DNA of 64,000 nucleotides from Candidatus Lambdaproteobacteria bacterium RIFOXYD2_FULL_50_16 (GCA_001783695.1 MFNE01000047.1:3555-67554), one strand, 5' to 3'. Numbered from the stretch's first letter, positions 42,104 to 64,000 are shown. Notes: a model not told the origin generated them from the letters alone. Translations and numbers: made by a program.

Positions 42104-43036
42104 TCAAATTTCCCGACCAAACCAGATAACCCGGCCTAACACTTGGGGGAGGTTGTCGTCTCCGATATTGAGGGTTTGCTCCGAGTATTTTGAATTGTCG
42201 CTTTTTAGCTTAATCCGCCCGTCCAACATGCGTTCGAGCCTTTTGACGATCAGGTTGTTTTCGATGCGAAGCACATACAACAGCCCGTCTTTGATCTGCC
42301 GCTGGGCCATGTCGATCAAAATTAGGTCGTGTTGTAATAAAGTGGGCTCCATTGAGTCGCCGATTACGTTTATTAGGGCCAGCCCTTCAAGCCCAACCCG
42401 TAAACTTCCTCGAACCCAGTCCTTATGAAAGGCCAAATGATTAATAATTTGTTCTGAGTCGATAATAGAACCGCTTCCGGCGGCCGCTTCGATCTTGTAA
42501 TGGGGCACATAAACAAACTGGTCTTCCGCCATCTGCCGCTGCCATTGGCTGGGCTCTTCGGCGGCCAAAACGGGATTCTTACGGCCAAATTCGCGAGCTA
42601 GTGACGGAAACCGATTTAGCAAAATGCTGCGTGCTTGGGCGCAGAGTCCTCGGCTTTTGCCATCATAAATTTTAGGCGGAGCCCCAGATTCGCGGCGAAC
42701 GGTGGTTTCAAAATATTCGGCGCGAGGGGGCAAGGCCAAAGCATCCGCTGCATCCTCATCGGTTATTGGCGGGGGCACCCGCAAAGGCCGGCCTTCTAGT
42801 TTAGAGTTTTCCAAAGCGATAGTGGCTTCCACCTTAGCGGAATCCCAATTAGCCCAGGCAACCTGGATATCGTCGGGGAGCCGTTCTAAGGGATAAAGAT
42901 GGATTGGGCTTCCATAAGCCCTTTGCTCTCGATAATGGGGCCATTGTTGCTTGCGAGCTTTGTTGTTCAAGCTTTTAAACGAGCTTAGCCCGGTAAAAAA
43001 AGAGAGCTCGACGATGTCATATCTTAAATACTTCAC
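42104..43036 (-). CDS. phage repressor with C-terminal S24 (LexA/CI-type) autopeptidase domain
   Basis: C-terminal region contains GDSMEPTL (Ser nucleophile) and a downstream Lys (IVKRLE). The ~180-aa N-terminal region has no canonical HTH_3. It is divergent from the early genes. Confidence 0.65.
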   Translation of the reverse strand: MKYLRYDIVELSFFTGLSSFKSLNNKARKQQWPHYREQRAYGSPIHLYPLERLPDDIQVAWANWDSAKVEATIALENSKLEGRPLRVPPPITDEDAADALALPPRAEYFETTVRRESGAPPKIYDGKSRGLCAQARSILLNRFPSLAREFGRKNPVLAAEEPSQWQRQMAEDQFVYVPHYKIEAAAGSGSIIDSEQIINHLAFHKDWVRGSLRVGLEGLALINVIGDSMEPTLLQHDLILIDMAQRQIKDGLLYVLRIENNLIVKRLERMLDGRIKLKSDNSKYSEQTLNIGDDNLPQVLGRVIWFGREI

Positions 43037-43120
43037 GGTGACCTGCTTGAAAGTTGAGGGTTATATTAAAAAATATATAAAAACAAATAGATCAAAAAAA
43101 ATGCTGAAAAACAAATTGAC

Positions 43121-43185
43121 AAGTACTTCAAAAGTACTTCATTATCGAGGCAAATGGAGCCCGCTGAATTTTAGGTGAAGTACTT
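43121..43185. promoter_or_regulatory. three copies of the perfect palindrome AAGTACTT (43121-43128, 43132-43139, 43178-43185) in the repressor/early-gene divergent promoter; putative operators
   Basis: Read directly in the sequence. The first two copies are spaced 11 bp centre-to-centre. A degenerate fourth copy (AAGTATT) lies at 43261. Confidence 0.45.
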
Positions 43186-43296
43186 ATCCAGTCTAACTCA
43201 TCTAAATTAAGCAGTAAACCCCATTATGTTTCAGAGCAATACTTTTTATACATTTTTAAGAAGTATTAATCTGTAAGCCTTGAACGGAAAAAGAAA

Positions 43297-43923
43297 ATGG
43301 CTAAAATCATCTATCTTAACCAGCAACCCTTTTGGCAAGACTCACAGGGTCGATTGATTCCAGAATCCCAAGTCCGGCCAGAGGACCAGGCAAAAGATCG
43401 GATGATCGAAGAGATTGCCCAATCTTGGAAGGAAGCCCAAGCCAACTTGATCCACCTTAAACGGTGGGTTTACTCGGAGGTGGGGGCCTACTTGAGTGTA
43501 CTTTCCTCCAAATACGGTGCCAAGTCCAAACCACCCGAATCGGGGCTGACGATTAAGGATTTTTCAGGAAGGTTTAAACTGCAAATCCAGGTTGCCTCGA
43601 TTATTAGTTTTGACGAAAAACTCCAAATTGCCAAAGGGCTGATCGATCAATGTATCGAGAGGTGGAGCCGCAATTCGGACCCAAAACTAGTCACCGTTAT
43701 CAAAGACGCCTTTCGAGTAAATCAGCAAGGAAAAATTAGTATTCCCCGAATCTTGGGACTACGAAATCTTTCGATTGACGACGTCGATTGGGAACGGGCG
43801 ATGGAAGCTATCACTGATTCCGTATTAATCGAACACACCAAAAAATACGTCCGCTTATACGAGCGAGACGAAGAAGCCGAGGGCGGTTATAAGGCCTTGC
43901 CCCTCGATATTGCTGCATTATAA
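43297..43923 (+). CDS. phage early-region hypothetical protein (208 aa)
   Basis: First gene divergent from the repressor, with good coding character. Confidence 0.4.
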   Translation: MAKIIYLNQQPFWQDSQGRLIPESQVRPEDQAKDRMIEEIAQSWKEAQANLIHLKRWVYSEVGAYLSVLSSKYGAKSKPPESGLTIKDFSGRFKLQIQVASIISFDEKLQIAKGLIDQCIERWSRNSDPKLVTVIKDAFRVNQQGKISIPRILGLRNLSIDDVDWERAMEAITDSVLIEHTKKYVRLYERDEEAEGGYKALPLDIAAL

Positions 43924-43938
43924 ACAAAAGGAGAAAAG

Positions 43939-62308: not shown

Positions 62309-63078
62309 TGAAAATCATCTACCCTAATCACGCAGAGAACCAAGGCCAACCGGCAGAAACCATCTTTGGTTATCCGGTGGTCAGTTTGTTTAACCCCCAC
62401 AAATTAGAGGTCTGGAAGGCCCTGGCCACCGGGGCTAGTGTCACGCTAGACTTTAACGTGGTTGGCCCTTCTGAAGCGTTTGCCCTCTTCGGAGTAGAGG
62501 CAGACCAACTTGAGCTTTATATCTTCTCCGATGCCGCCCGCAGCCAACTGCACCACCAAGAAACCCTTACTACCCAAAAAACCGACGAATTCGGTAGCTA
62601 CCAGGCCGACGCAGTCTGGGCCGAATATCCTACGTTGCCCGTCGCTTATGGCCGCTTGGTGTTGAGTACCCTTACCCAAACCACTCCGTCGATTGGGATT
62701 CTGGTTGCCGGGCCGCTCCACTCTTTTCCCAACCCTACTTGGGGCTTCGAAGAAGAATGGGCCGACAATTCGATTGTGAAAAAACTGCGTGTTGGGGCGA
62801 AATACACCAAAAACAAAGCCCGCGCCAAACGCTACAGCGGGGGCCTAGAGTTTTTCCACGCCAGCGGCGGCAAGGAGCGGTTTGAGGCGTTGAAACGCTT
62901 CCGCGGCCATTTGGGAGCGGACCCGTTTGCCTTAAAAGTGATTGAGGGCCTCAAAGATTCGGGGGGCAACTCGCTTGATCAAAAATACCTAGTCTGGGCT
63001 AGTTTTTCTAGTTTTAAGGCGGTCATGGGCAAACGCTCCCATTCGACCGTGAACCTTTCGATTGAAGAATACCTTTAG
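62308..63078 (+). CDS. phage tail component (256 aa)
   Basis: Translationally coupled to the upstream gene (ATGA overlap). Confidence 0.4.
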   Translation: MKIIYPNHAENQGQPAETIFGYPVVSLFNPHKLEVWKALATGASVTLDFNVVGPSEAFALFGVEADQLELYIFSDAARSQLHHQETLTTQKTDEFGSYQADAVWAEYPTLPVAYGRLVLSTLTQTTPSIGILVAGPLHSFPNPTWGFEEEWADNSIVKKLRVGAKYTKNKARAKRYSGGLEFFHASGGKERFEALKRFRGHLGADPFALKVIEGLKDSGGNSLDQKYLVWASFSSFKAVMGKRSHSTVNLSIEEYL

Positions 63079-63086
63079 GAGACAAA

Positions 63087-63464
63087 ATGGCCAAATGGGC
63101 AAACGACTTGGTTATGGACCAAGGGCTGGAATATCTGAAGTACCACGCCAATAATCTGGTCGCCTGTGCTGGCCAGCCGACCAACTACGCCGAGGCGATA
63201 GGGGCCAACTTTTTAGGGATGATTACCTTAAGTATAGGCCACCTCAATGTTTCGGATGGGGTGATCTCGGGGCGGAGGCTGACCGTTTCCGGGCGGATGG
63301 GGCTTTTGACCCAGGTTGCTGGTTTAGCCGATCATTTTGCCCTGATTGATTCGGTAAATCAGGTCTTATTGTACGTTACCGAAGCGGCCAGTTCGCAGCA
63401 GACTTACGCCCAAAACAGTATCGACACCCCTGATTGGGACATCACCATCGCTGACCCGGTTTAG
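63087..63464 (+). CDS. phage tail component (125 aa)
   Basis: Compact ORF within the tail module. Confidence 0.35.
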   Translation: MAKWANDLVMDQGLEYLKYHANNLVACAGQPTNYAEAIGANFLGMITLSIGHLNVSDGVISGRRLTVSGRMGLLTQVAGLADHFALIDSVNQVLLYVTEAASSQQTYAQNSIDTPDWDITIADPV

Positions 63465-63606
63465 CATCGTTTTAGACCGCCCACCCACCGCTTTGGGGCC
63501 AGCGGATGAAGTGCTCGTGGGGCCTACCGGCCAAGCCTCACTCTAGCAATTAAGTGTCCCTGCTTCGTGCAGGGAAATCATTAACAACCCCATTTAATTA
63601 GGTACA

Positions 63607-64000
63607 CATGGGAAAACTACGATTTATCAACAACTTCGACGATCATGTGGTGGGCAGTTTTGGTCCGAGCGCCACAACCTTGACCATCAACAACGCCGCC
63701 CCCTTGGGCAGTTTGGCAAACGGTGATTTTTACTTTGCTACCTTGTCTGACGGGGTCGCCTTTGAGGTGGTTAAGGTCACCGGGACCCAAGGCAACGACC
63801 TTACGGTAGAGCGGGGCCTAGAAGGCACCCAAGGCTTGACCTACTCGACGGGCAACCCAATTCAAATCCGCGACACTGCGGGCACCTTGGCTAGTTTTGT
63901 CCAGGCGACGGAAGCGCCCAATTTGGGCAAAAATCGGTTGATTAACGGGGCCATGTTGATCTGGCAGCGCCAGACGTATAGTTTGACGTCCAATAACTAT
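63607..64000 (+). CDS. phage tail fiber/tip protein, 5' partial (runs off the window)
   Basis: ATG at 63607 (MGKLRFINNFDDHVVG...) with no stop before the window end. Not in the ORF track because it is truncated. Confidence 0.35.

Follow-up and report, generated by a model that had tools for sequence, protein, structure and literature searches.

A Mu-like siphophage remnant without transposition genes is conserved at one locus of 'Candidatus Lambdaproteobacteria' and may be a domesticated, particle-competent prophage

Introduction

How can phage head, tail and lysis genes persist at a chromosomal site that carries neither a transposase nor an integrase gene? The question is raised by a 64-kb stretch of DNA from a 'Candidatus Lambdaproteobacteria' bacterium of Rifle groundwater (RIFOXYD2_FULL_50_16, MFNE01000047.1:3555-67554), here called the window, in which a prophage-like element extends from position 42104, counted from the first letter of the window, past the window end. 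An earlier note, made from the sequence alone, had described one 22-kb prophage, a mosaic of Mu-like regulatory and head genes with a siphovirus tail, that was either a degraded or cryptic transposable prophage or carried its integration genes at the unseen right end. Few domestications of phages into particle-producing elements of the host are known: RcGTA, BaGTA, VSH-1, PBSX and few others. We propose, at a probability of about 60 %, that the element is a defective Mu-like prophage which has been domesticated, is inherited vertically and is particle-competent in the manner of PBSX or of a gene transfer agent (GTA).

Results and discussion

Loss of mobility genes and conservation at an orthologous locus

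Gene content was derived from a listing of open reading frames (ORFs) and from Pfam and PHROG scans. A search for exact matches to the protein of the last complete window gene retrieved a contig of the same organism (L001), which is 99.95 % identical in the overlap and adds 3.4 kb to the right; window coordinates beyond 64000, that is the fibre end, the fibre chaperone and the right junction, are extrapolated from it. MuA and MuB homologues were not detected by tblastn in the window and its extension with queries from L015, from L023 (the closest complete relative in IMG/VR) and from the D3112-like Casadabanvirus LPB1, and Pfam and PHROG scans found no recombinase domain in any ORF between 42.1 and 65.2 kb. 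The replication module is wholly absent, ner and GemA included. The absence of A/B transposase and integrase genes, reported in the earlier note for the window, thus holds for the extended contig, and an element lacking MuA, MuB and all replication and transposition genes should be unable to move or to replicate alone. The integration genes that the note had placed at the right end were not there: L001 continues with the tail fibre and its chaperone, followed after about 60 bp by the host gene GCS2, tRNA-Phe and the 16S-23S-5S rRNA operon. An integrase at the right end was rejected as a candidate, since the extended contig runs straight into host genes. The tRNA-Phe lies beyond GCS2, approximately 1.5-1.6 kb from the end of the element, and is accompanied by neither an integrase nor att repeats. 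Terminal direct or inverted repeats did not occur above chance at the element ends, nor did the target duplications and att-like repeats whose search the note had suggested. The tRNA-Phe and rRNA operon are located at 13634-14359 on L001 and at 15906-21333 on contig L211 of the relative introduced below; several contigs end at the operon because the element sits about 1.5 kb upstream of it and of tRNA-Phe.

Relatives of the large terminase (TerL) were sought in 185,579 species genomes (one per GTDB species) and in 2.9 million IMG/VR viral contigs. The GTDB scan yielded one close relative, 'Candidatus Lambdaproteobacteria bacterium RIFOXYD2_FULL_56_26' (the sister species in the following; contigs L103, L185/L186 and L211/L212), with a TerL identity of 62 %; outside this two-species clade the next-closest TerL reached 48 % in the species genomes and 53 % in IMG/VR. 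The gene order in the sister species is MltA, CARDB, FG-GAP, repressor, DUF3164, lysozyme, Mor, pentapeptide-repeat protein, a 646-amino-acid (aa) protein, late phage genes, GCS2, tRNA-Phe and rRNA operon. The transposase-less layout and the host neighbours on both sides are the same as in the window, and all ORFs in the sister species are intact. The two hosts are well separated, with 91.6 % identity over the first 332 nt of the 16S rRNA gene; the window organism goes under the name RIFOXYD12_FULL at NCBI (assembly GCA_001781965.1). Host flanking proteins share 59-70 % identity, proteins of the element 37-82 % with a length-weighted average of approximately 53 %. Gene content and synteny demonstrate an immobile element at an orthologous locus in diverged hosts.

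Two phage-derived blocks around ancestral host genes

The history of the locus was taken from GCS2 homologues and a look-up of the contigs encoding them; a metagenome scan with GCS2 as query yielded relatives at 35-42 % identity only. In the outgroups L220 and L219 (GCS2 about 50 % identical), the interval from FG-GAP to GCS2 holds a pentapeptide-repeat gene, a homologue of the 645-aa protein, an ion-channel gene (Ion_trans), a 79-aa gene and MJ0043_C, and no phage gene; the L219 contig begins at the pentapeptide gene, so that FG-GAP is outside the view there. Three of these genes have counterparts in the middle of the supposed prophage: a 601-aa pentapeptide-repeat protein (44875-46680, plus strand, Pfam match) with its own sigma-70-like promoter, the 645-aa protein (46686-48623, minus strand) and a 38-codon relic of the 3' part of the ion-channel gene (48797-48910, minus strand). 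The relic was recovered by tblastn with four orthologues and corresponds to orthologue residues of about 196-234 at 50-55 % identity (E about 1e-6). An intact copy of the channel gene occurs in L183, L216, L218 and L220. Its truncation coincides exactly with the left edge of the late phage genes. The ORF at 48620-48931 was rejected as a real gene, as it holds this relic. As these genes are ancestral at the locus in phage-free outgroups, 44875-48931 is, on comparative evidence, host DNA, and the phage-derived DNA consists of two flanking blocks, an early block at 42104-44798 and a late block from 49067 to about 65210, together about 19 kb. The single contiguous 22-kb prophage of the earlier note, to which the pentapeptide and 645-aa genes had been counted, has to be given up.

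The junctions of the element are trimmed tightly to gene ends. On the left, 138 bp separate the start of the host FG-GAP gene (39149-41965, minus strand) from the repressor stop codon, close to the 140 bp given before; the spacer (41966-42103) contains a hairpin with a T-run that reads as a minus-strand terminator and is weakly conserved across three species. At the inner edge of the early block, the junction alignment places the Mor stop codon a few bases from the promoter of the pentapeptide gene. This promoter is alike in all six lineages and begins a few bases past the Mor stop codon where Mor is present; in the phage-free outgroup L220 the orthologue with the same promoter adjoins FG-GAP. 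At the right junction (about 65209-65236, from the junction alignment), a promoter-like motif 5' of GCS2 starts about 30 bp past the chaperone stop codon and is conserved even in phage-free relatives.

The pentapeptide protein evolves fast, with 36-45 % identity between lineages whose flanking proteins share 57-79 %, under a conserved promoter; its N-terminal region is weakly YfiO/BamD-like. The 645-aa protein is restricted to few lineages: its family forms 6 clusters among 5.8 billion proteins, and no Pfam, PHROG or PADLOC match was obtained. An AlphaFold2 (AF2) model with a pLDDT of 73 is mostly helical and has no fold match in the PDB. Orthologues and paralogues occur in phage-free contexts; homologues were located at L183 2909-4843, L184 10001-11983, L219 2006-6021 and L220 5197-7215. 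The gene lies downstream of the ion-channel gene in most genomes, L219 has tandem paralogues, and L184 a second copy of the family beside HSP90 with a 189-aa partner. As a hidden transposase or recombinase this minus-strand ORF was rejected on the missing family match, the helical fold without PDB match and the phage-free loci. Further to the left, a gap of about 0.9 kb with low GC content (about 0.42) separates MltA and CARDB (36979-37906); it holds only a 100-aa ORF without Pfam match.

Purifying selection on the late genes

Between the window and the sister species, synonymous sites are saturated, dN amounts to 0.13-0.64 and every ORF is open. A closer pair of contigs (L215 and L211, dS 0.4-0.9) gave dN/dS ratios of 0.03-0.22 in all 11 late genes compared. 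Within the window species, contigs from different samples presented 41 polymorphic sites in the late genes, 26 synonymous and 15 nonsynonymous, thus a pN/pS of 0.17 (binomial p = 4e-8); eight of the 15 nonsynonymous polymorphisms cluster in the fibre C-terminus. Apparent deletions of the spanin-like gene in L225 and L227 were N-gaps in the scaffolds; a deletion polymorphism was rejected. Saturated dS with open ORFs, the low dN/dS and pN/pS and a conserved frameshift site in the tail genes form a pattern that neutral decay cannot explain. The substitution patterns demonstrate purifying selection on the late genes since the species split and within the present population.

This bears on the reading of the element as an inert cryptic prophage in slow decay, with genes that are functionless and not yet eroded, which we consider unlikely. 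Lineage-specific losses are real: the window species lacks DUF1804 and the sister species the fibre chaperone, the late block is gone from three lineages and DUF3164 from two of these, and Mu F and the transposition genes have been lost. Neutral decay, however, cannot leave the ORFs of about 16 kb uninterrupted over a time in which synonymous sites become saturated, nor does it agree with the dN/dS and pN/pS values, with a capsid protein more conserved than the flanking host genes, with a conserved signal for programmed frameshifting or with the tightly trimmed junctions. The earlier description as a degraded or cryptic transposable prophage was right in the Mu-like ancestry, but "degraded" undersells intact, selected ORFs at the orthologous locus of a second species.

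Ancestry from transposable siphophages

In IMG/VR the closest complete relative, L023, has 53 % identical TerL, 61 % identical capsid and 46 % identical tail tube proteins. It carries MuA and MuB, has DUF3164, lysozyme and Mor arranged as in the window, and encodes DUF1804, TerL, portal, Mu F, protease, decoration protein and a capsid protein of E type. Both blocks of the element are closest to this one phage lineage. Phages with a homologous S24 repressor (L008, L010 and L022) have MuA and MuB between repressor and DUF3164; the gap between these two genes measures about 5.4 kb in L008 versus 0.26 kb in the window. The nearest isolated phages are SuMu and LPB1, with TerL identities of 45-47 %. 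By gene content and similarity, the element is a descendant of a Mu-like transposable siphophage of the D3112/B3 type. Magnetococcales metagenome-assembled genomes (loci L104-L147) are strikingly rich in prophages whose TerL proteins rank next in similarity (44-50 % identity), often with several per genome.

With D3112/B3-type phages (LPB1; IMGVR_UViG_3300032373_001188) the element shares a leftward CI/S24-type repressor, DUF3164, Mor and endolysin, a Mu-type TerL (45-53 % identity), the Mu portal, gp36/gp37, a siphovirus tail with G/GT and tape measure, and the gene order. Unlike them, it lacks ner, MuA, MuB, GemA, Mu F and recognisable att ends; unlike these random inserters, it is fixed at one orthologous locus and interrupted by host genes, and its approximately 19 kb of phage-derived DNA compare with 36-40 kb in complete phages of the type. 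Complete transposable siphophages combine a Mu-like head with a siphovirus tail, so that the mosaic is the ordinary layout of the group minus the transposition module. The genes behind the mosaic described earlier are real, and their arrangement is normal for L023 and Casadabanvirus; the head, however, is not of Mu type throughout, but has a lambda-E capsid and a D-like decoration protein without Mu F.

A still-autonomous temperate phage with unrecognised integration, either through a new recombinase hidden in one of the ORFs without annotation or through a host Xer-type system, is very improbable. Unannotated ORFs do exist, encoding the 645-aa protein, proteins of 622, 256 and 125 aa and a 55-aa product, and no part of the repressor-operator switch is missing. 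However, the genes for the 645-aa protein and the pentapeptide-repeat protein belong to the host, and the orphan ORFs are placed inside the tail module after the tape measure gene. The autonomous phage would moreover have to do without a replication module and att-like repeats, occupy the same locus in both species at a divergence at least that of the host flanks, and lack any close relative among the 2.9 million viral contigs and the 185,579 species genomes.

History of the locus

Besides the window and the sister species, three lineages carry phage genes between FG-GAP and GCS2. In L183 (bacterium RRB13) the interval holds repressor, DUF3164, lysozyme, Mor, the pentapeptide gene, a 644-aa gene and Ion_trans, in L216/L217 and L218 the same genes minus DUF3164. 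Repressor, lysozyme and Mor are intact in the three lineages at 42-67 % identity, and the S24 catalytic residues are kept. Either the late genes of these lineages have moved to another site, or the switch block serves a purpose of its own, for instance autolysis under control or the regulation of host genes nearby. Beside GCS2, all five lineages with phage blocks lack the 79-aa gene and MJ0043_C, which suggests an old event at the GCS2 junction. Four host-gene trees were star-like, and the two late-block carriers were sisters in none of them.

Did the blocks arrive together? One may also assume two insertions, an older early-block relic in five lineages and a later Mu-like phage that entered the ion-channel gene and lost its own early region; the 22 kb would then never have formed a single element. 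We regard this course of events as doubtful. It would account for host genes ancestral at the locus being flanked by the blocks, for an ion-channel gene whose truncation falls precisely where the late block begins and for three lineages with an early and no late block. The host-gene trees, with the late-block carriers sisters in none of the four, do not favour a single late gain over losses, however; the early and the late block are both nearest to the lineage of L023, the genes missing beside GCS2 in all five lineages suggest an old junction event, and a locus deprived of MuA and MuB was unable to produce a second copy by itself. As a speculation, one prophage may have been split by rearrangement, for example, along the lines of classical Mu genetics, as a Mu-host-Mu product of replicative transposition followed by complementary deletions. 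A second insertion into the ion-channel gene or a translocation are further candidates for the origin of the split.

Early block and repressor switch

The genes named in the earlier note, S24 repressor, Mor and protease among them, were confirmed by Pfam or PHROG matches, the repressor indeed at the left edge. It is a LexA/CI-type protein of 310 aa (42104-43036, minus strand; PF00717, E 3e-20; PHROG_4, transcriptional repressor) and 67 % identical to the orthologue of the sister species. The Ala-Gly cleavage site, the catalytic serine (GDSM) and the catalytic lysine (VKR) are intact, and the motifs are kept in species A, B and C. An AT-rich operator/promoter region of 260 bp follows (43037-43296). 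Its best promoter match (10 of 12 positions) is a predicted early promoter, TTGACA-18-CATTAT, at 43116-43145, overlapped by two GTACTTCA repeats (43123-43130 and 43134-43141); an inverted copy lies at 43176-43183, and the inverted repeat of the region is I17. Three of the four occurrences of GTACTTCA in the window fall inside this region. The block of TTGACA, tandem (A/T)GTACTTCA and inverted copy is kept in three species.

Three plus-strand genes complete the early block. DUF3164, an early gene of Mu-like phages (43297-43923; Pfam, E 1.6e-60), is 74 % identical between window and sister species. The endolysin of the GH24 family (43939-44436; Pfam Phage_lysozyme, PHROG_7) is predicted to be soluble, as neither a transmembrane (TM) segment nor a signal-anchor was found in the protein. 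The third gene encodes the late transcription activator of the Mor family (44439-44798; Pfam Mor, E 3e-11; PHROG_836, E 4e-28). PADLOC defence models did not match the repressor, DUF3164, the pentapeptide protein or the 645-aa protein. On this gene content, the element could be controlled by the phage-type switch that it has retained, made up of S24 repressor, operators and Mor; a cellular regulator was not recognised.

Late block

All late genes are on the plus strand. The first gene codes for a holin-like protein of 78 aa (49067-49303) with one TM helix and a charged tail in both species (51 % identity). A spanin-like protein of the i-spanin type follows (49335-49736, 133-142 aa, an N-terminal TM segment and a coiled coil), and TerL comes directly after it (49889-51499; Mu/D3112 type, PHROG_38, E 3e-107) with an intact Walker A motif. 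DUF1804, the candidate for a Mu gp27-like small terminase, is present just before TerL in the sister species (L185 8561-9073, intact) and in L023. At the corresponding place in the window (49737-49996) DUF1804 is deleted, and the first approximately 36 TerL codons are swapped for an unrelated low-complexity sequence.

The head genes comprise a Mu-type portal (51524-52741; Portal_Mu, E 5e-97), a head maturation protease/scaffold (52860-53921; PHROG_976, E 3e-68), a lambda-D-like decoration protein (53937-54284; Pfam HDPD), a lambda-E-type major capsid protein (54312-55304; Phage_cap_E), the Mu gp36 head-tail connector (55277-55723; PF07030) and the Gp37 connector (55889-56305; PF09646). Orthologue alignment and gene call place the protease start at about 52860 rather than at the GTG at 52773. 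An unannotated 55-aa ORF is situated between gp36 and Gp37 (within 55277-56305). The capsid protein is 82 % identical between the two species, above the host flanks. TerL, portal, protease, decoration and capsid genes are all present and conserved, which sets the element apart from an F-type tailocin.

The tail is of siphovirus type, as the earlier note had recognised, with tube, G/T chaperones and tape measure all present. In the tube, or major tail, protein gene (56313-57476; Phage_tube_2), all seven single nucleotide polymorphisms in the population are synonymous. Chaperone G is encoded at 57522-57896, and the ORF of chaperone T, in the -1 frame, extends to 58300; matches to PHROG_313 and Phage_TAC_18 mark the two as tail assembly proteins. 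A slippery heptamer, A_AAA_AAA, is placed at 57887-57893 immediately 5' of the G stop codon; the sister species has A_AAA_AAG (L211 7405-7411) with the T ORF likewise in the -1 frame, thus the frameshift signal is conserved. The tape measure protein of 738 aa (58227-60443) was recognised from its place and size, from gene calls and from the orthologue. The distal tail also includes three orphan proteins of 622, 256 and 125 aa (60440-63464), which have orthologues of 47-59 % identity in the sister species and a dN/dS of about 0.1; no Pfam or PHROG match and no homologue in isolated phages was found for them, and the two larger ones had none among 50,697 phage records. The AF2 model of the 622-aa protein (pLDDT 38) was unusable for a fold search.

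The tail fibre of 413 aa starts at 63608 and runs over the window end at 64000 to about 64849 (PHROG tail-fibre matches and L001 gene calls), and the fibre assembly chaperone of 118 aa follows at 64852-65208 (Phage_tail_APC; on L001). The fibre gene (L001 10522-11763) is a hotspot at the strain level: the assemblies L002, L003 and L004 break 30-160 bp into the gene, and L006 has 18 substitutions over its 2.8 kb; 17 fall within 250 bp of the fibre gene, and eight of these 17 are nonsynonymous.

Putative mode of action

The biology of LexA-type repressors and of Mu Mor suggests how the element could work. DNA damage would lead to RecA-stimulated self-cleavage of the S24 repressor, the derepressed early promoter at 43116-43145 would allow expression of DUF3164, endolysin and Mor, and Mor would switch on the late operon. 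Tailed particles could then assemble, and holin and endolysin would lyse the cell. The element is thus probably SOS-inducible and particle-forming, a function we infer from its genes. Without a transposase there is neither genome amplification nor excision, hence any packaged DNA would be chromosomal and taken up in situ. By analogy, the element would act as a PBSX-type defective phage or a GTA, not as a virus.

Several observations weigh against a particle-competent, domesticated element. None of the 8 contigs of the window species carries DUF1804, a loss that could cripple packaging; it is compatible with either non-specific packaging or none. Both species lack two genes present in L023, those for the Mu F-type head/pilot protein and for a neck protein of 163 aa, and the sister species lacks the fibre chaperone. 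A conserved late, Mor-dependent promoter was not recognised in the upstream regions of the two species, which do not align. Three lineages (L183, L216/L217 and L218) have no late block at the locus, so particle production is dispensable there or the genes are located elsewhere. With a star-like host tree and blocks split by host genes, a single-prophage origin and the control of the late block by Mor are assumptions.

PBSX of Bacillus is fixed and conserved across related species and consists of a repressor, a late activator and head, tail and lysis genes without integration and replication genes. Its SOS induction results in lysis and the release of particles with host DNA. PBSX is myovirus-like and regulated by Xre and the sigma factor Xpf. 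In its gene content the element resembles PBSX, in being fixed and conserved across species with repressor, late activator and late genes; its ancestry is unrelated, from a Mu-like siphophage with S24 repressor and Mor.

A true GTA, of a hitherto unrecognised family from a Mu-like transposable siphophage in the uncultivated Lambdaproteobacteria/SAR324-related lineage, would be a subset of the domesticated state; we put this forward tentatively, as a possible reading. As in RcGTA, BaGTA and VSH-1 (PMC5721377, PMC8987985), a head-tail-lysis cluster without replication and integration genes is inherited vertically under purifying selection. Unlike these GTAs, the element has kept a phage-type repressor and Mor, its head genes are of the full-size lambda-E plus decoration type, and its retention is patchy, in two or three of about six sampled lineages. 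Without transposition and, in the window species, without the small terminase, heads would be filled by a headful mechanism from the chromosome in situ. Packaging could favour the adjacent region of GCS2, tRNA-Phe and rRNA operon, and if it ran rightwards from the element, the rRNA operon would be co-packaged. An early block kept in lineages free of the late block would then be a domesticated regulator in its own right. A full-text literature search found no Mu-derived GTA.

Defective prophages that are 'grounded' (PMC6379469) have likewise lost the recombination machinery, are inherited vertically and keep some genes under purifying selection. The element differs from typical cases in that the whole late module of 16 kb is intact across about 92 % (partial) 16S identity and that it is split around host genes.

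Conclusion

The domesticated Mu-like prophage adds a well-supported case to a phenomenon already known, the domestication of prophages; it stands out by its Mu-like ancestry and its split layout and does not represent a new kind of system. No domesticated particle-maker met in the literature search has a transposable Mu-like phage as its ancestor. When the transposase is lost, integration, excision and replication disappear together, thus a Mu-like ancestor would offer an easy route to an immobile, particle-competent element. Prophage callers should be used with caution, as host genes may lie inside an apparent single prophage. The locus presents a natural series, from phage-free over early block only to early and late block, the latter with or without the small terminase, which may serve as material for work on the taming, trimming and loss of such elements.

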